A DNA stretch of 18,059 nt from a virus. Location: UHGV virus genome UHGV-0072595. The stretch is one strand, 5' to 3'. Below are positions 4,726 to 15,845 of this stretch, in pieces (positions within the stretch are counted from its first letter, which is position 1; each line of letters starts with the position of its first letter). Position numbers and translations under genes: made by a program. The notes under the pieces were generated by a model. The model had not been told where the DNA came from. It saw only the letters and a program-made list of their open reading frames with translations, and searched no databases.

Positions 4726-4914
4726 CTGGATTCTCCTGTCAGTTAGCTTTGGTGATTGGATGGCCGGCGCTGAACCCCGGCTTACTGGTTAGAGCGCCCG
4801 CACTACCAGTGACGCTGTCTTGAGGCGCAGATTGGTTACTGCTTGCCATGAGCGCTGTTTATACATTGGTCGAGCATCAGCCTGCTCATTCATCCAATCC
4901 CAAAGCCTTCTGCT

Positions 4915-4945
4915 TTGAATGCTGCCCTTCTTCAGGGCTTAATTT
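4915..4945 (-). promoter_or_regulatory. nutL (boxB hairpin GCCCTGAAGAAGGGC at 4915-4929 and boxA CGCTCTTA at 4938-4945, read on the minus strand)
   Basis: Exact lambda boxA and boxB motifs seen on the reverse complement. Confidence 0.85.
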
Positions 4946-4993
4946 TTAAGAGCGTCACCTTCATGGTGGTCAGTGCGTCCTGCTGATGTGCTC

Positions 4994-5056
4994 AGTATCA
5001 CCGCCAGTGGTATTTATGTCAACACCGCCAGAGATAATTTATCACCGCAGATGGTT
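4994..5056 (-). promoter_or_regulatory. pL promoter with operators OL1 (4996-5012), OL2 (5020-5036), OL3 (5040-5056); -10 GATACT (4994-4999) and -35 TTGACA (5017-5022) on the minus strand
   Basis: Three 17-bp TATCACCGC/CAACACCGC-type operator half-site pairs identical in form to lambda OL; promoter hexamers at 17-bp spacing. Confidence 0.85.
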
Positions 5057-5202
5057 ATCTGTATGTTTTTTATATGAATTTATTTTTTGCAGGGGGGGCA
5101 TTGTTTGGTAGGTGAGAGATCTGAATTGCTATGTTTAGTGAGTTGTATCTATTTATTTTTCAATAATACAATTGGTTATGTGTTTTGGGGGCGATCGTGA
5201 GG

Positions 5203-5229
5203 CAAAGAAAACCCGGCGCTGAGGCCGGG
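5203..5229 (-). terminator. Intrinsic terminator immediately after the rexB stop (CCCGGC/GCCGGG stem plus U-tract on the minus strand), tIMM-like
   Basis: Plus strand acccggcgctgaggccggg preceded by aaagaaa; on the minus strand hairpin then UUUUCUUU. Confidence 0.6.
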
Positions 5230-5664
5230 TTATTCTTGTTCTCTGGTCAAATTATATAGTTGGAAAACAAGGATGCATATATGAATGAACGATGCAGAGG
5301 CAATGCCGATGGCGATAGTGGGTATCATGTAGCCGCTTATGCTGGAAAGAAGCAATAACCCGCAGAAAAACAAAGCTCCAAGCTCAACAAAACTAAGGGC
5401 ATAGACAATAACTACCGATGTCATATACCCATACTCTCTAATCTTGGCCAGTCGGCGCGTTCTGCTTCCGATTAGAAACGTCAAGGCAGCAATCAGGATT
5501 GCAATCATGGTTCCTGCATATGATGACAATGTCGCCCCAAGACCATCTCTATGAGCTGAAAAAGAAACACCAGGAATGTAGTGGCGGAAAAGGAGATAGC
5601 AAATGCTTACGATAACGTAAGGAATTATTACTATGTAAACACCAGGCATGATTCTGTTCCGCAT
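5230..5664 (-). CDS. rexB: RexB (membrane component of the Rex abortive-infection/exclusion system, 144 aa)
   Basis: Track ORF; multi-pass hydrophobic protein of the right size immediately downstream of rexA as in lambda. Confidence 0.9.
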   Translation of the reverse strand: MRNRIMPGVYIVIIPYVIVSICYLLFRHYIPGVSFSAHRDGLGATLSSYAGTMIAILIAALTFLIGSRTRRLAKIREYGYMTSVVIVYALSFVELGALFFCGLLLLSSISGYMIPTIAIGIASASFIHICILVFQLYNLTREQE

Positions 5665-5679
5665 AATTACTCCTGATAA

Positions 5680-6519
5680 TTAATCCTTAACTTTGCCCAC
5701 CTGCCTTTTAAAACATTCCAGTATATCACTTTTCATTCTTGCGTAGCAATATGCCATCTCTTCAGCTATCTCAGCATTGGTGACCTTGTTCAGAGGCGCT
5801 GAGAGATGGCCTTTTTCTGATAGATAATGTTCTGTTAAAATATCTCCGGCCTCATCTTTTGCCCGCAGGCTAATGTCTGAAAATTGAGGTGACGGGTTAA
5901 AAATAATATCCTTGGCAACCTTTTTTATATCCCTTTTAAATTTTGGCTTAATGACTATATCCAATGAGTCAAAAAGCTCCCCTTCAATATCTGTTGCCCC
6001 TAAGACCTTTAATATATCGCCAAATACAGGTAGCTTGGCTTCTACCTTCACCGTTGTTCGGCCGATGAAATGCATATGCATAACATCGTCTTTGGTGGTT
6101 CCCCTCATCAGTGGCTCTATCTGAACGCGCTCTCCACTGCTTAATGACATTCCTTTCCCGATTAAAAAATCTGTCAGATCGGATGTGGTCGGCCCGAAAA
6201 CAGTTCTGGCAAAACCAATGGTGTCGCCTTCAACAAACAAAAAAGATGGGAATCCCAATGATTCGTCATCTGCGAGGCTGTTCTTAATATCTTCAACTGA
6301 AGCTTTAGAGCGATTTATCTTCTGAACCAGACTCTTGTCATTTGTTTTGGTAAAGAGAAAAGTTTTTCCATCGATTTTATGAATATACAAATAATTGGAG
6401 CCAACCTGCAGGTGATGATTATCAGCCAGCAGAGAATTAAGGAAAACAGACAGGTTTATTGAGCGCTTATCTTTCCCTTTATTTTTGCTGCGGTAAGTCG
6501 CATAAAAACCATTCTTCAT
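5680..6519 (-). CDS. rexA: RexA (sensor component of the Rex system, 279 aa)
   Basis: Track ORF MKNGFYATYRSKNKGKDKRSINLSVFLNSLLADNHHLQ...; matches lambda RexA as I recall it; cotranscribed with cI. Confidence 0.9.
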   Translation of the reverse strand: MKNGFYATYRSKNKGKDKRSINLSVFLNSLLADNHHLQVGSNYLYIHKIDGKTFLFTKTNDKSLVQKINRSKASVEDIKNSLADDESLGFPSFLFVEGDTIGFARTVFGPTTSDLTDFLIGKGMSLSSGERVQIEPLMRGTTKDDVMHMHFIGRTTVKVEAKLPVFGDILKVLGATDIEGELFDSLDIVIKPKFKRDIKKVAKDIIFNPSPQFSDISLRAKDEAGDILTEHYLSEKGHLSAPLNKVTNAEIAEEMAYCYARMKSDILECFKRQVGKVKD

Positions 6520-6631
6520 AATTCAATCCATTTACTATGTTATGTTCTGAGGGGAGTGAAAATTCCCCTAATTCGATGAAGATTCTTGCTCAATTGTTAT
6601 CAGCTATGCGCCGACCAGAACACCTTGCCGA

Positions 6632-7348
<717 letters not shown>

Positions 7349-7355
7349 TTAAATC

Positions 7356-7421
7356 TATCACCGCAAGGGATAAATATCTAACACCGTGCGTGTTGACTAT
7401 TTTACCTCTGGCGGTGATAAT
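7356..7421. promoter_or_regulatory. Right operator region: OR3 (7356-7372), OR2 (7379-7395), OR1 (7403-7419) with divergent pRM (leftward) and pR (-35 TTGACT 7393-7398, -10 GATAAT 7416-7421)
   Basis: Operator sequences TATCACCGCAAGGGATA, TAACACCGTGCGTGTTG, TACCTCTGGCGGTGATA read directly; these are the lambda OR sites. Confidence 0.9.
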
Positions 7422-7436
7422 GGTTGCATGTACTAA

Positions 7437-7646
<210 letters not shown>

Positions 7647-7653
7647 ATAACCC

Positions 7654-7685
7654 CGCTCTTACACATTCCAGCCCTGAAAAAGGGC
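7654..7685 (+). promoter_or_regulatory. nutR (boxA CGCTCTTA 7654-7661; boxB GCCCTGAAAAAGGGC 7671-7685)
   Basis: Exact lambda-type boxA/boxB motifs downstream of cro. Confidence 0.85.
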
Positions 7686-7764
7686 ATCAAATTAAACCAC
7701 ACCTATGGTGTATGCATTTATTTGCATACATTCAATCAATTGTTATCTAAGGAAATACTTACAT

Positions 7765-8043
7765 ATGCAACTTACAAGTACTCGCAAGAAAGCGAATGCA
7801 ATTACAAGCAACATCCTGAATCGAATTGCTGTACGTGGTCAGCGAAAGGTTGCCGACGTGTTAGGGATTAATGAATCGCAAATTTCGCGATGGAAAGACA
7901 GCTTTATCCCAAAGATGGCCATGCTTCTGGCTGTGCTGGAATGGGGTGTTGAAGACGAGGAGTTGGCGGAACTGGCTAAGCAAGTAGCCAGAATGCTGAC
8001 AAAAGAAAAAGCCCCGAAGAACGGCGAATTCTTCGAGGCCTGA
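7765..8043 (+). CDS. cII: cII-like transcriptional activator (about 92 aa; non-lambda allele)
   Basis: Track ORF 7705..8043 trimmed to ATG 7765 (AAGGA SD; same leader as lambda cII). Shares ...[20 protein letters not shown]... with lambda cII but differs elsewhere. Confidence 0.8.
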
Positions 8044-8077
8044 TGTAGAAAGACTGGATCAATCCACAGGAGTAATT

Positions 8078-8224
8078 ATGACAAAACAACTCAGTCCTTA
8101 CCAGGACAAAATTCACAAACACATACTACGTGATCGCTTCCTGTCCAGCTTCAAGCAGCCTGGTCGATTCCGGGCTGAGTTGGAAAAAGTGAAGCTGATG
8201 CAGAAGGAGAAAGGTCATGAGTAA
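8078..8224 (+). CDS. Small basic hypothetical protein (48 aa) between cII and the O-like gene
   Basis: Hand translation [48 protein letters not shown]; AGGAG SD 6 nt upstream; stop overlaps the O-like start region. Confidence 0.4.
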
Positions 8225-9077
8225 TCTTGCAACCGTAACACATTTAAGGCCTTCACAACGGCCTGTGGAGCGTCGTGTGGCAGAAGTTGAAGATGGTTAT
8301 ACCCGTCTTGCAAATGCCCTGTATGAAGAGCTTATCGGCGCAGATTTAACGAAAAATCAGAGCAAGGTTGCCCACGCCATATGCCGTAAAACATACGGCT
8401 ACGGTAAAAAGATGGATCGCATCTCTGATAGTCAGTTAGCTCAAATTACCAGGCTGCCAAGACAGAAGGTAAACAAGGCCAAGAATGAGCTTATCGCGAT
8501 GAAGGTTATCCTTCGCGAAGGCCAGCAAATCGGGCCTAACAAGAACATCGAGGAATGGCAAATCGAAGGGTGTCACTACTCTGGTGATAATGTCACTGCA
8601 TTGGTGACAAAAAGTGTCACCAAAACGGTGACAGCGCTGTCACCAAAACAGGGACACACAAAAGAAACTATTACAAAAGAAAAAAGAAATAATAAAAACA
8701 CTATGTCCGAAAGTGTTCGGACGGAGTGTGAAAAATCACATGACCGTCACGAAGAAACCGACAAGGCATTCGAGGAAATATTCTGGTGTGCAGGCATGCG
8801 GAAAGCCGGGAAGAAAAACGCAGCTTCGGCATTCAGAACACAGTTCAGGGAATGGCGTAAAACTACCAGGGGGACGGCAAGCGAGTTTGCCACGATGCTG
8901 GCAGAAGACATCGCATGCAGGAATGGTAAGCAGTTCGGATTCGACAGGTTGTTACCATCGAGCTACCTGAACGGTCAACGCTGGAACGACGAAAAGCCAG
9001 AAACCATTCAACCACAATCCAAACCATCATCCGCAATCACCGTATCGAAAACTGGCTACGTGTTTTTCGACAGGTGA
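8217..9077 (+). CDS. Replication initiator, lambda O-like N-terminal iteron-binding domain with a divergent C-terminal domain (286 aa)
   Basis: Track ORF; N-terminus shares the O-family pattern DDGYxRL...ADLTKxQxKV...RKTYGxxKxMDRIxDSQL...GPNKNIxEW with lambda O; gene contains its own iteron/AT-rich origin. Confidence 0.85.
8582..8700. repeat. Replication origin inside the O-like gene: three to four iterons built on GGTGACA/TGTCACC inverted half-sites (about 8582-8650) followed by an A-rich region
   Basis: Direct reading: ctGGTGAtaaTGTCACtgca, ttGGTGACAaaaagTGTCACCaaaac, GGTGACAgcgcTGTCACCaaaac, then acaaaagaaactattacaaaagaaaaaagaaataataaaaac. Confidence 0.7.
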
Positions 9078-9080
9078 ACC

Positions 9081-9188
9081 ATGAAATCAAAAATCAAATC
9101 GCTACTGGTCGCTGGTTATAACCACGGCTGGTTAAGTATTTCGTTTGTCGATTTCTGGTTTAAAAATCTCAATCTGAGGGAATCATGA
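9081..9188 (+). CDS. Possible small coupled ORF (35 aa) between the O-like gene and the primase-helicase
   Basis: Hand translation MKSKIKSLLVAGYNHGWLSISFVDFWFKNLNLRES; start 4 nt after the O stop; stop overlaps the primase-helicase ATG (ATGA). Confidence 0.3.
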   Translation: MKSKIKSLLVAGYNHGWLSISFVDFWFKNLNLRES

Positions 9189-11065
9189 CGCCAAGTGAAC
9201 TTAGCGACCTGCTTTGGGCGCAGGTTGACAGGGTGGCTCCGCACCTGTTGCCAAACGGCAAGAAAGAGGGGCATGAGTGGGTTGCCGGTAACATCAACGG
9301 TGACAAGGGAAACAGCCTTAAGGTCAACCTTAGCGGCAAGAAAAAATGGGCTGATTTCGCTGAGGGAGACGGCGGTGACATGCTTGATTTGTGGATGGCA
9401 TGTCGTGGAATTAACCTGCATCAGGCTATGCAGGAAGCGAAAGCATTTCTCGGTATCAAGGATGACGATCACCATTTCGATGCCAGACGTGAGAAAAAAT
9501 TCTCCAGACCTGATCGCAAGAAAATCGCCCGCTACGTTACCAGAACAGAATCCCATCTTGAGTACCTGCAATCGCGTGGCATATCGCCAGAAATCGTAAA
9601 GCGCTACGAGGTTGTCAGCGGCAAGGTGTGGAATGGAGAGCGGGAACTGGATGCTCTGGTGATTCCGTACAAACGCGATGGTGAGTTGTTGCAGGTCAAG
9701 CGAATCAGCACTGAGCGCCCGGACGGGAAGAAAGTCATTATGGCAGAAGGTGATTGCGAACCTTGTCTGTTCGGATGGCAGGCTCTGGACGCTGGCGTGA
9801 GGGCGGTTGTACTTTGCGAAGGCGAAATTGATTGTATGAGCTATGCGCAATACGGCATCTCGGCGTTATCCGTACCGTTTGGTGGAGGGAAAGGCGCTAA
9901 GCAACAGTGGATTGAGTTTGAGTATCACAACCTCGACAGGTTTGAGGAAATATTCATCTCGATGGACGTTGATGATGTTGGTCGTGAAGCCGCAAGGGAA
10001 ATCGCAAGCCGACTCGGTGAACATCGTTGCCGTCTTGTTACTCTGCCGTACAAAGACATCAACGAATGCCTGATGAACGGTGTTACCGAGGATGCAATCT
10101 GGCAGTACATCGGCACGGCATCCTACTTTGATCCTGAAGAACTCTACAGCGCGCGAGAGTTTTACCAGGACACTATCAACGCTTTCTACGGCAAGCAGCA
10201 GTATCTGTTTAATCCACCGTGGGAATCTCTGGCAGATAAATTCCAGTTCCGTGAGGCCGAGTTGACGCTGGTCAATGGTGTGAACGGTCACGGAAAAACG
10301 GAGGTTGTCGGGCATATGGCACTTGAGGCAATGCGTCAGGGTGTGAAGACGTGCATCGCGTCACTTGAGCTGAAGCCTGGTATTCTCCTTAAGCGCCTTA
10401 CCCGTCAGGCAACGTGCTGCAAGATGCCGCCAGTGCTGGAAATTGACTCTGCATTTAAATTTTATGACGAAAGACTTTGGGTGTTTGGCCTGACCGGAAC
10501 GGCGAAAGCCGACAGGCTGATCGAAATATTCGACTACGCTCGCCGCCGATACGGGATCCAGTTATTCATCATCGACAGCCTGATGAAATGTGGCATAGGC
10601 GACGATGACTATAACGGGCAGAAGGCGTTTGTTGACTCGATTTGCGACTTCAAAAACAAAACAAACTCCCACGTCATTCTCGTTACTCACTCGCGAAAAG
10701 GAGACAGCGAAGAAAAACCAACCGGGAAAATGGACGTAAAAGGCTCTGGAGCGATAACAGACCTGACAGACAACCTTTTCATCATCTGGCGTAACAAGGC
10801 TCGCGAGAGAGCGTTACAGAGAGTTCAGAGTGGTGAAAAGATGTCAGAGAAGGACGAACAGGTACTGGCGTCTCCGGCATCTGTTTTGATGCTTGAAAAA
10901 CAACGAAACGGCGAAGGTTGGGAAGGTGGTGTCCCGTTGTTCCTTGACGAGCAATCGCACCAGTTCCTGCAACTTGAATCAGGATCGCCATATAGCTACA
11001 TCGCCAATATGCCGAAATCGGAATATGACGAGGCGTGGCGACAGGAAAACGTGACGGAGTATTAA
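9185..11065 (+). CDS. Bifunctional DNA primase-helicase (N-terminal primase/Toprim-like region, C-terminal DnaB/RecA-like helicase), replaces lambda P (626 aa)
   Basis: Track ORF; acidic Toprim-like motifs (CEGEIDCMS, MDVDDVGRE), Walker A NGVNGHGKTE and Walker B-like LFIIDSLMK in the C-terminal half. Confidence 0.8.
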   Translation: MTPSELSDLLWAQVDRVAPHLLPNGKKEGHEWVAGNINGDKGNSLKVNLSGKKKWADFAEGDGGDMLDLWMACRGINLHQAMQEAKAFLGIKDDDHHFDARREKKFSRPDRKKIARYVTRTESHLEYLQSRGISPEIVKRYEVVSGKVWNGERELDALVIPYKRDGELLQVKRISTERPDGKKVIMAEGDCEPCLFGWQALDAGVRAVVLCEGEIDCMSYAQYGISALSVPFGGGKGAKQQWIEFEYHNLDRFEEIFISMDVDDVGREAAREIASRLGEHRCRLVTLPYKDINECLMNGVTEDAIWQYIGTASYFDPEELYSAREFYQDTINAFYGKQQYLFNPPWESLADKFQFREAELTLVNGVNGHGKTEVVGHMALEAMRQGVKTCIASLELKPGILLKRLTRQATCCKMPPVLEIDSAFKFYDERLWVFGLTGTAKADRLIEIFDYARRRYGIQLFIIDSLMKCGIGDDDYNGQKAFVDSICDFKNKTNSHVILVTHSRKGDSEEKPTGKMDVKGSGAITDLTDNLFIIWRNKARERALQRVQSGEKMSEKDEQVLASPASVLMLEKQRNGEGWEGGVPLFLDEQSHQFLQLESGSPYSYIANMPKSEYDEAWRQENVTEY

Positions 11066-11094
11066 ATGACCATCTACATCACTGAGCTTGTAAC

Positions 11095-11126
11095 AGGCCT
11101 GCTGGTAATCGCAGGCCTTTTTATTT
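11095..11126 (+). terminator. Intrinsic terminator after the replication genes (8-bp perfect stem CAGGCCTGC/GCAGGCCT plus U-tract), tR2-like position
   Basis: Direct reading caggcctgctggtaatcgcaggcctttttattt 30 nt after the primase-helicase stop. Confidence 0.65.
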
Positions 11127-11141
11127 GGGGGAGAGTAAATC

Positions 11142-11348
11142 GTGGTTGAGTTTATGCTCGTCGCACTCAAATGCGTTGGCGTTGGATGGATTCTTCTGAC
11201 GTTTTTTATTGTTCTGCATAGCTACATTCGCCTTGTGAATGACGGTAAAGATCCATGGTATACGTTGTTTGGCGCTGCATTTGTCTGGGTGATTATCGGT
11301 GTTATGCCTGTCGCTGTAGCAAAAATGGCGTGGCGTTTTGTGAGTTGA
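11142..11348 (+). CDS. Small two-helix membrane protein (68 aa from GTG; 64 aa if ATG 11154)
   Basis: Track ORF; GGGGGAGAG SD upstream of the GTG; two hydrophobic segments (GVGWILLTFFIVL and LFGAAFVWVIIGVMPVAV) separated by a short polar loop. Confidence 0.55.
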   Translation: MVEFMLVALKCVGVGWILLTFFIVLHSYIRLVNDGKDPWYTLFGAAFVWVIIGVMPVAVAKMAWRFVS

Positions 11349-11365
11349 ACTGAGGGTAAGTATCG

Positions 11366-11686
11366 ATGGACGAATCAAGAAAGCAGTTTGAAGAAAGTTG
11401 GTTGCGACGTGGAGGCGAATCTTCAGACCTTATCCGTTACCCTGAAAATCACCATGAAATTGGCAGTGGTGATATTGGTGGTCAATACGTGATGGACGAT
11501 GTTCAAGGCCACTGGCAAACGTGGCAGGCATCGCGAGCAGCTATTGAAATAACCGCGCCAAAGTTTATCGACAGCAGAGAAGCATTAGCCAAAGGGTTTA
11601 CTGTTGATTATTCCAATGGCTTCGGTGATGCAATGGATGCTTATGAGGAAAACATCCGCGCTGCTGGAGTCAAAGTGAAGGAGTGA
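11366..11686 (+). CDS. Hypothetical protein (106 aa)
   Basis: Track ORF; same-strand operon context; no family recognised. Confidence 0.55.
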   Translation: MDESRKQFEESWLRRGGESSDLIRYPENHHEIGSGDIGGQYVMDDVQGHWQTWQASRAAIEITAPKFIDSREALAKGFTVDYSNGFGDAMDAYEENIRAAGVKVKE

Positions 11687-14926: not shown

Positions 14927-15111
14927 ACGCCACAATTCAAACGATACCAGAGCTTCTTATCCAGACACGAGGCAATCAGACCGAAGTGGCTAGGATGCTT
15001 TCCTGCGCAAGAGGAACAGTGCTCAAGTACAACCGAGACAGCAAAGGCGATCGTCACGTAATAGTTAACGGCGTCCTGATGGTCAAACAGGGAAAGAGGG
15101 GAAGACGATGA
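14923..15111 (+). CDS. ninH: NinH-like protein (62 aa)
   Basis: Track ORF; ...GNQTEVARMLSCARGTVLKY... matches the NinH HTH-like core; ATGA overlaps on both sides. Confidence 0.75.
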   Translation: MNATIQTIPELLIQTRGNQTEVARMLSCARGTVLKYNRDSKGDRHVIVNGVLMVKQGKRGRR

Positions 15112-15626
15112 GCATAAGAGAACTAAACCTCACCAAAGAACAGCATGAGTGGCTGAATGGCTGGCTTGAACTGTGGGGCGCATGGGTTTATTCAGGTCGT
15201 CTGGAAAAGCGCATGAGCAGCGTAATAGCGAAGTTCATGGAGAGCGTAGAGCCGGGAAGAGTTATGACAAGGCCAATGTGTAATGATGATGATGGAATGT
15301 TGATTTCTCAGGTCGTCGATTCCGTCATGTACATTGACAAGAAAGCCTTTGGCATCCTCCTCAGCTACTACGCTCATGGTTCATCTAAGCGAGCAATTGC
15401 ATCCTACTATCACGCGACTGCAAAGCCACGCAAGATGTGTGGACGTGGTGGCGAGGGATGGAGAAAACCTTCACTGGCAACCTGTAGAAACGAAATTGAC
15501 GACATCCTGAAAGCGTCATTATTTGTTTTGTACCAACCAATGCAAAATGCTTTCAAAATGCGTAAACGTGTTGAGAAAGTTAAGCATGTTGCTGTTAAAA
15601 ACCTTGACATGCAATTAGCCATTTAG
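15108..15626 (+). CDS. Q: Late antiterminator Q (non-lambda type, 172 aa)
   Basis: Track ORF; last gene of the nin operon, immediately upstream of a pR'-like promoter, terminator hairpin and the lysis cassette; pattern WGAW...P.C.DDD resembles phage 21/82-type Q proteins (from memory). Confidence 0.7.
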   Translation: MSIRELNLTKEQHEWLNGWLELWGAWVYSGRLEKRMSSVIAKFMESVEPGRVMTRPMCNDDDGMLISQVVDSVMYIDKKAFGILLSYYAHGSSKRAIASYYHATAKPRKMCGRGGEGWRKPSLATCRNEIDDILKASLFVLYQPMQNAFKMRKRVEKVKHVAVKNLDMQLAI

Positions 15627-15689: not shown

Positions 15690-15764
15690 GGGTCAGTCGT
15701 ATAAAGGTCATTACGGAAGGCTGTTAACCTTCTTATCGTGGTTCGAGTCCACGCTGTCCCGCCA
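15690..15764 (+). tRNA. tRNA-Asn(GUU)-like gene with encoded CCA; atypical (one U-U mismatch in the acceptor stem, weak D-stem)
   Basis: Manual fold: acceptor GGGTCAG/CTGTCCC, anticodon stem GAAGG/CCTTC with loop CTGTTAA, T-arm CGTGG-TTCGAGT-CCACG, discriminator G, CCA. Confidence 0.5.
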
Positions 15765-15769
15765 AATAT

Positions 15770-15845
15770 GCTGGTTTAGCTCCAATGGTAGAGCAGTCGC
15801 CTTGTAAGCGAATGGGTAGCGGTTCAAGTCCGTTAACCAGCACCA
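15770..15845 (+). tRNA. tRNA-Thr(UGU) gene with encoded CCA
   Basis: Manual fold: perfect 7-bp acceptor GCTGGTT/AACCAGC, D-arm GCTC-CAATGGTA-GAGC, anticodon loop CTTGTAA, T-arm AGCGG-TTCAAGT-CCGTT, discriminator A, CCA. Confidence 0.65.

Follow-up and report, generated by a model that had tools for sequence, protein, structure and literature searches.

Organization of the locus

The window analysed here, the whole 18,059-nt stretch of UHGV virus genome UHGV-0072595, is by sequence comparison the early region of an Escherichia coli lambdoid prophage, namely a natural immλ prophage with a replication module of the mEp043 type. The subject of this report is its gene for an O-like replication initiator, which carries within its own coding sequence a candidate replication origin at 8571–8729. 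The elements of the gene and of the origin are listed below; structural features refer to an AlphaFold2 (AF2) model scored by the predicted local distance difference test (pLDDT).

8217..9077, + strand: O-like replication initiator gene, 286 aa, with the origin inside (Pfam Phage_rep_O, aa 20–114, E 1.1e-37)
8217..8570, + strand: N-terminal winged helix-turn-helix, predicted origin-binding domain, aa 1–118 (AF2 pLDDT 84–97 at about aa 30–115)
8460..8498, + strand: predicted recognition helix, aa 82–94 (AF2 helix 82–94; diagnostic residues discussed below fall here and in the turn before it, at T78, L80 and P81)
8571..8589, no strand: iteron 1, TGTCACTACTCTGGTGATA, right half degenerate (repeat search and pattern scan; left half TGTCAC invariant in 14 diverged homologues)
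8591..8609, no strand: iteron 2, TGTCACTGCATTGGTGACA (repeat search, pattern scan, homologue conservation)
8615..8633, no strand: iteron 3, TGTCACCAAAACGGTGACA, a perfect 7-5-7 dyad (repeat search, pattern scan, homologue conservation)
8638..8656, no strand: iteron 4, TGTCACCAAAACAGGGACA, right half degenerate like that of lambda iteron 4 (repeat search, pattern scan, lambda alignment)
8657..8697, no strand: A-rich presumed DNA-unwinding element (GC 0.15 in 8660–8699)
8698..8729, no strand: imperfect palindrome with core GTCCGAA-AGTG-TTCGGAC at 8705–8722 (14-nt arms, 86% complementary)
8754..9077, + strand: C-terminal domain of the ES18 gp59 type, presumed to recruit the partner, aa ~180–286 (96–97% identical to the ES18 gp59 C-terminal domain)

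The N-terminal domain (N-domain), 49% identical to that of lambda O, is modelled as helices 24–41, 46–60 and 71–78, a turn, helix 82–94 and a β-hairpin at 98–107. Between this confident domain and the helical C-terminal domain (C-domain) lie residues 121–179 (nt 8577–8753), a disordered linker with pLDDT <50. The iterons encode aa 119–147 in this predicted disordered region, and thus the repeats do lie in the linker of the O-like gene, where the initial annotation of this DNA had placed them. Foldseek against the PDB returned weak matches (best E 8e-3), all of them to dimeric winged-helix proteins from the CRP/FNR and MarR families, and a PDB sequence search with O found no solved relative.

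The iteron array

The four 19-bp repeats in 8571–8656 conform to TGTCAC(C/T)-N5-(G/A)G(T/G)GA(C/T)A and follow one another in the order TGTCACTACTCTGGTGATA-A-TGTCACTGCATTGGTGACA-AAAAG-TGTCACCAAAACGGTGACA-GCGC-TGTCACCAAAACAGGGACA. The repeat search returned 19–20-nt copies starting at 8571, 8591, 8615, and 8638, i.e., with a start spacing of 20/24/23 bp, or about two helical turns. A scan of the whole window for the 17-bp pattern GTCACY-N5-RGTGAY, allowing at most one mismatch, matched at 8572, 8592, 8616, and 8639 on both strands, and one unrelated match was observed elsewhere in the window. The four sites compare with 0.38 expected matches, and none of 200 shuffles reached 9, so the repetition is significant. 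Four of the seven GGTGACA/TGTCACC heptamers of the window are located inside the array (1.8 were expected in the 18-kb window), and 6/13 TGTCAC hexamers are packed into 73 bp of it. No other multi-copy direct-repeat family was found in the replication module (7650–11400).

The initial annotation had described three to four repeats built from these heptamers, spaced at roughly one helical turn and, with an A-rich region after them, placed at 8582–8700. Repetition, motif, and place all stand: exact copies of GGTGACA occur at 8603 and 8627 and of its complement TGTCACC at 8615 and 8638, and half-site centres are about 11–12 bp apart within an iteron. The count is four by both repeat search and pattern scan, and the first iteron begins at 8571, 11 bp earlier than had been given. 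The register with GGTGACA first has to be abandoned, since the GGTGACA-N4/5-TGTCACC palindromes are junctions of adjacent iterons; the register homologous to lambda is TGTCAC(C)-N5-GGTGACA. The same ambiguity is present in lambda itself, in the form of AGGGAT-AAAAC-ATCCCT between iterons 2 and 3.

Comparison with oriλ

The origin follows the plan of oriλ. As in lambda, four dyad iterons of the same geometry are located in the linker of a Phage_rep_O gene and contain an AAAAC spacer, and they are followed by an A-rich block; an imperfect palindrome further right may correspond to that of lambda. The annotated lambda iterons start at 39034, 39054, 39078, and 39101, which gives a spacing of 20/24/23, equal to that of the window, and the distance from iteron 4 to the A-rich motif CACAAAAGA is 19 bp in both. 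The A-rich region that had been noted 3' of the repeats is present at 8657–8697, and 32 of the 33 positions of its 8657–8689 part (97%) are identical to the lambda block. Past 8690, identity in the gap-free alignment with lambda falls to random level.

In contrast, the half-sites are GTCACC/GGTGAC in the window and TCCCTC/GAGGGA in lambda, so that four of six consensus positions are changed. In the gap-free alignment from iteron 1, only 19/48 half-site positions are identical, compared with 10/20 positions of the intra-iteron spacers, in agreement with the earlier statement that these iterons differ from those of lambda. Thus, the geometry of the oriλ scaffold is kept base for base, while the half-sites are replaced. 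The C-domain of O is unrelated to that of lambda, and the partner is a primase-helicase instead of P and host DnaB. In gene location, iteron size, dyad symmetry and spacing, the adjacent AT-rich region, and the co-variation of iterons with the N-domain, the locus is of the oriλ type; it lies outside the lambda specificity group, defined by TCCCTC-N5-GAGGGA iterons and a lambda-type N-domain.

In oriλ, a palindrome lies to the right of the AT-rich region. The palindrome at 8698–8729 occupies the position of the lambda one, and its sequence is unrelated. For each type of C-domain module, a palindrome of distinct sequence follows the A-rich block on the right: GTCCGAA..TTCGGAC in the ES18 type, CCCCCTT..AAGGGGG in the P22 type, and GTCAGAG..CTCTGAC in lambda. 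One variant, GAGCGAA..TTCGCTC from Providencia, has two compensated pair changes. The palindrome goes with the helicase-partner module, separately from the iterons, and may therefore be an origin element specific to the helicase partner, a weaker possibility than the specificity switch considered below. In a scan of IMG/VR for diverse palindromes with the C-domain as query, identity was 98% or more throughout the best 80 contigs, too high for a covariation comparison.

Other lambdoid origins

The comparison covered the origins of lambda, phi80, P22, HK97, HK022, BP-4795, and ES18 (phages 82 and 21 lay outside this set), and the half-sites of all of them are unlike those of the window. P22 (gene 18) has TTTACC..GGTAAA, HK97 has TTAGCC..GGCTAA, and phi80 has TTCCCG..CGGGAA (the annotated gp15 sites). 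HK022 has a direct repeat of the ATTACCAGCA type, and BP-4795, from the Stx-phage family, has six lambda-type iterons. P22, HK97, phi80, HK022, and BP-4795 share with the window the plan of allele-specific repeats inside an O-like gene; a CACAAAAGA-type A-rich block is found in P22, HK97, and BP-4795, but not in phi80 and HK022. For phage L, the repeat TGTCCAACGGA has been described (PMC8022706). That iterons in the O gene are allele-specific, with the N-domain binding the origin and the C-domain binding the partner, is a textbook principle (PMC8022706; PMC7466680).

Selection acts on the DNA motif

The iterons are also coding sequence, and their repetition might be a by-product of a repetitive linker peptide, VT-K-x-VT, maintained by selection on the protein and devoid of any function in DNA. 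Iterons 2 and 3 indeed both encode V-T-x-x-V-T. However, the four iterons start at codon positions 2, 1, 1, and 3 and encode CHYSGD, VTALVT, VTKTVT, and LSPKQGH, respectively, so that iterons 1 and 4 are read in the other two frames. Among 14 non-redundant homologues with four iterons, 34/48 half-site columns are invariant, and mean conservation is 0.93 in half-sites, compared with 0.78 in spacers and 0.83 between iterons. It is flat by codon position (0.875, 0.865, and 0.880), with no relaxation of the third one. Variation thus spares the half-sites at any codon position without a third-position excess, and the peptide is predicted to be disordered. Since the motif occurs in three frames, is conserved without third-codon relaxation, and encodes residues modelled as disordered, selection targets the DNA motif, the peptide being a tolerant linker, and an origin of the repeats at the protein level is hardly credible.

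Natural exchange of O domains, iterons, and helicases

The gene downstream of O encodes the presumed partner, and a short open reading frame (ORF) lies between the two:

9081..9188, + strand: 35-aa ORF, homologue of ES18 gp60, between O and the primase-helicase gene (33/35 aa identical)
9185..11065, + strand: primase-helicase, 626 aa, Toprim_2 + AAA_25/DnaB_C, presumed partner of the O C-domain (Pfam; 94% identical to ES18 gp61)

The window thus contains the module formed by a gp59-type C-domain, a gp60-like ORF, and a Toprim/DnaB primase-helicase. The record of ES18 gp61 labels it 'putative primase/helicase; similar to phage T7 gene 4'. The 35-aa ORF is kept with this replication module and is left without annotation in mEp043 and in the RefSeq version of KE40; it may encode a small accessory replication factor.

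Four phages provide a natural two-by-two exchange. Lambda combines a lambda-type N-domain and TCCCTC iterons with a lambda-type C-domain and the partner P, and gp59 of Salmonella phage ES18 combines the same N-domain type and iterons with an ES18-type C-domain and the gp61 primase-helicase. The window and mEp043 have a new N-domain type and GTCAC iterons with the ES18-type C-domain and the primase-helicase. Finally, PhiR12_1 has the new N-domain (100% identical over nt 1–473) and GTCAC iterons with a lambda-type C-domain, P, and ren. In each case the iterons track the N-domain and the partner tracks the C-domain. Accordingly, the window is like ES18 in its C-domain (96–97%), gp60 ORF, primase-helicase (94%), and right-hand palindrome, and unlike it in the N-domain and iterons; the ES18 origin is annotated as 'similar to lambda ori'. 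Homology to the window stops at 8689 in PhiR12_1 and begins at 8644 in ES18, which places the exchange points in the conserved iteron-4/A-rich segment 8644–8689.

The ES18-type C-domain was found with a Toprim/DnaB primase-helicase in 8/8 loci that were intact and long enough to score. O genes with GTCAC iterons have at least three kinds of C-domain and downstream genes, i.e., a primase-helicase after an ES18-type C-domain, P after a lambda-type one, and a DnaB-like helicase after one of the P22/HK97 type; several further sets were left unclassified. The lambda-type C-domain and P are joined to the GTCAC N-domain/iteron module in PhiR12_1, Pantoea latae, and Rahnella. Hence, the iteron group is not tied to a helicase type. 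The initial annotation had paired the specificity group with a non-lambda helicase; the next gene does encode a Toprim+DnaB-like primase-helicase, but the pairing runs via the C-domain and not via the iteron group.

A third, unrelated N-terminal part on the same C-domain and helicase was found in Stx2a phage F403; this part bears three GGGCAGGAGCTGCCC repeats and lacks an A-rich block like that of lambda. The F403 primase-helicase (AP012529.1 14576–17482) is 98% identical to window 9185–11065 and is interrupted, precisely within the Walker-A loop (…GHGK|C…HN|TEVV…), by an intein-like insertion of ~330 aa.

The nature of the partner raises the question of whether the O-type iterons are vestigial, the working origin being elsewhere, e.g., within the primase-helicase gene or next to it. 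In favour of this, a fused Toprim+DnaB-like enzyme takes the place of P, and some primase-helicase replicons, of the N15/P4 type, have their origin in or near that gene. Three observations speak against this explanation, which we consider improbable. Firstly, the half-sites are largely invariant in the 14 diverged homologues, and the array is kept in 23 genes and 76 viral contigs. Secondly, the iteron array is the only family of multi-copy repeats in 7650–11400. Thirdly, the C-domain type of O co-varies strictly with the helicase, which implies a working interaction between O and the helicase.

Probable specificity groups of O proteins

When species-representative genomes were scanned with the N-domain as query, 29 loci were obtained; with phage records added, 37 O genes were compared. 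Iterons of the form GTCAC(C/T)-N5-(G/A/C)GTGAC were found in 23 of them, with N-domain identity down to ~64%; the carriers include Shimwellia, Citrobacter, Pantoea, Serratia, Xenorhabdus, Photorhabdus, Providencia, Tatumella, Rahnella, Erwinia, Rosenbergiella, and others. Nine O genes, from Erwinia phage phiEt88, prophages of Rosenbergiella, Symbiopectobacterium, and Yersinia, and one metagenome-assembled genome, have iterons of the GTTACC-N5-GGTAAC type. Neighbour joining of the N-domain sequences separates the two groups as sister clades, reciprocally monophyletic.

The phiEt88 clade has the same origin architecture and the A-rich motif CACAAAAGA, and its N-domains are the nearest outside the GTCAC group (56–58% identical). 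Its iterons, TGTTACC-N5-GGTAACA, differ from those of the window by one base pair per half-site, its helix-turn-helix reads CRISR(P/S)KAN where the window has TRLPRQKVN, and its C-domain and DnaB-like partner are different. Seven columns part the clades perfectly (in window numbering, R30, N33, G63, T78, L80, P81, and Q83), and in the AF2 model four of these seven residues are located at the turn of the helix-turn-helix and where the recognition helix begins. All members of the GTCAC clade have the segment LPRQKVN, whereas the GTTAC clade has ISR(P/S/E)KAN, ending in KVC in one member. The corresponding segment is LPVKRCN in lambda, MAPTKCS in P22, and IHHTHVC in HK97.

Taken together, the half-sites and the N-domain motif …LT(R/N/K)LPRQKVN…, which spans the turn and the recognition helix, probably define a group distinct from those of lambda, phi80, P22, HK97, and HK022, with which it presumably does not cross-react. 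A distinct replicon-specificity group had been proposed for this DNA, and the tracking of the N-domain by iteron type across naturally swapped O genes and 29 further genomes, a pattern to be expected of such a group, supports it. Tentatively, the GTCAC and GTTAC sister clades could represent a natural minimal specificity switch, although we would not give this even odds. The switch may consist of one base pair per half-site together with T78C, L80I, P81S, Q83P/S/E, R30M, and N33M. Since the gene that encodes the reader also holds its binding sites, the two must have evolved in concert inside ~450 bp. If the clades truly do not cross-react, they would offer a tractable model for the birth of initiator/origin incompatibility groups.

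The same comparison bears on the idea that the repeats are sites of some dimeric protein other than O, host CRP or a phage repressor for instance, which regulates the expression of O or replication. GGTGA/TCACC resembles the CRP core TGTGA/TCACA, and the nearest, albeit weak, structural matches of the N-domain are CRP-family proteins. The CRP consensus is TGTGA-N6-TCACA, with a 6-bp spacing. A CRP site was rejected at this locus, where the gaps between GTGA and TCAC are 5, 9, and 8 bp, not 6. Moreover, the half-site changes with the clade of the O N-domain in hosts ranging from Escherichia to Xenorhabdus, which fits a phage-encoded reader and not a conserved host protein, and the position and spacing of the repeats match the O-binding iterons of lambda. 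Binding by a regulator other than O is thus highly improbable.

Distribution of the origin allele

A tblastn search of the phage collection with the N-domain gave 13 records at 99% identity or more; all others but one, which might be phage 82 or 21, were below 60%. The identity of the O gene is 99.4% in mEp043, Sf101, and vB_EcoP-720R6, 99.1% in SEN22, and 100% in E. coli KE40; the N-domain, iterons, and A-rich block are 99–100% identical in mEp043, Sf101, SEN22, vB_EcoP-720R6, and the PhiR12 series. The full-length O gene was found in 170 of 5,426 complete E. coli genomes (~3%). Among the best 80 IMG/VR contigs with an ES18-type C-domain (at least 98% identity), 76 have the GTCAC array and four have lambda-type iterons, so that the window shows the prevalent combination.

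The records with this allele that were inspected for an annotated origin (mEp043, PhiR12_1, and KE40) have none. A literature search with the motif and the term iterons returned nothing relevant; the paper on Sf101 does not discuss the origin, and for the PhiR12 phages no publication came to light. The origin is not new as a sequence, being present but unannotated in the published phages mEp043, Sf101, and SEN22, and no description of the iteron allele itself was found in the available literature.

Two further records of this prophage type, NZ_CP146567.1 and NZ_CP146561.1, match 70% of the window at 99% identity. They are separate 39.9-kb replicon records, outside the chromosome, in two assemblies of hospital-wastewater E. 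coli. These could be excised or extrachromosomal phage genomes.

A model of the origin and its assessment

We propose, with a probability of about 0.85, that 8571–8729 serves this lambdoid prophage as its replication origin, with the plan of oriλ and a location inside the gene of its own initiator. It is an ordinary variant of the oriλ type, common in enterobacterial prophages. The following promoter would contribute to its activity:

7393..7421, + strand: pR-like promoter TTGACT-17-GATAAT, upstream of cro, cII, O, and the origin (consensus scan; inside the lambda-identical block 4899–7767)

In the proposed mechanism, O dimers would bind the four dyad iterons GTCAC(C/T)-N5-GGTGAC via the N-terminal winged helix-turn-helix and form an O-some; half-site centres ~11 bp apart would therefore lie on one helix face. 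The nucleoprotein complex would stress and destabilise the adjacent A-rich block (8657–8697). The ES18 gp59-type C-domain would then recruit the phage Toprim/DnaB primase-helicase (9185–11065), possibly with the gp60-like peptide, at the step at which the C-domain of lambda O recruits P and host DnaB. Transcription from the lambda-identical pR would run through the origin, as in lambda. Activation of the origin by transcription is known in lambda (PMC7466680), and the pR-like promoter at 7393–7421 may by analogy have the same role. Finally, the conserved iteron-4/A-rich segment also acts as the homologous joint at which modules of N-domain with iterons and of C-domain with helicase are reassorted. 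Binding, unwinding, helicase recruitment, and origin firing are all predicted from homology and co-variation.

Several points weigh against this interpretation. O binding and initiation at 8571–8729 are inferred only, and the same holds for mEp043, Sf101, and SEN22; the papers retrieved say nothing about the origin. In support of the interpretation, the origin module is carried by these viable phages. The right halves of iterons 1 and 4 are degenerate, so that perhaps not all four sites are occupied, and in Stx phages only four of six iterons are bound strongly (PMC7466680). The full-length model of O has a mean pLDDT of 63.6, i.e., a low overall confidence, and structural matches with a best E of 8e-3 are consistent with a winged-helix N-domain rather than proof of it. 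Because the split between the GTCAC and GTTAC clades is a single evolutionary event, the mapping of residues to bases, drawn from that one contrast and from the distant alleles of lambda, P22, HK97, and phi80, is suggestive and not proof.

The finding leaves existing concepts unchanged. It allows the origin to be annotated in a common replicon that has so far been labelled only 'replication protein', and the probable replication-specificity group bears on the prediction of trans-activation or interference between co-resident prophages. It also provides a clean natural illustration of the two-domain model of O, in which the N-domain goes with the iterons, the C-domain with the helicase, and the A-rich segment forms the joint.

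Neighbouring features

The segment 4899–7767 (oL/pL, rexB, rexA, cI, cro, and nutR) is 99.9% identical to the lambda immunity region. The changeover to cII sequence resembling P22 c1 takes place at ~7743–7767 and is followed by an ORF with a DUF2740 domain and then by the Phage_rep_O gene. A strong terminator-like hairpin of 14 pairs with a T-run is located at 8009–8041 on the minus strand, antisense to the 3' end of cII, in the position of the terminator of lambda oop or phi80 M3 RNA.

An Rfam scan of the whole window gave two transfer RNA (tRNA) genes as its sole matches and none at the origin. They are located at 15690–15761 and 15770–15842 on the plus strand (55 and 61 bits, respectively), 3' of the Q antiterminator gene (15108–15626) and 5' of the lysis genes, and the pair is labelled tRNA-Asn and tRNA-Thr in the near-identical KE40 prophage.

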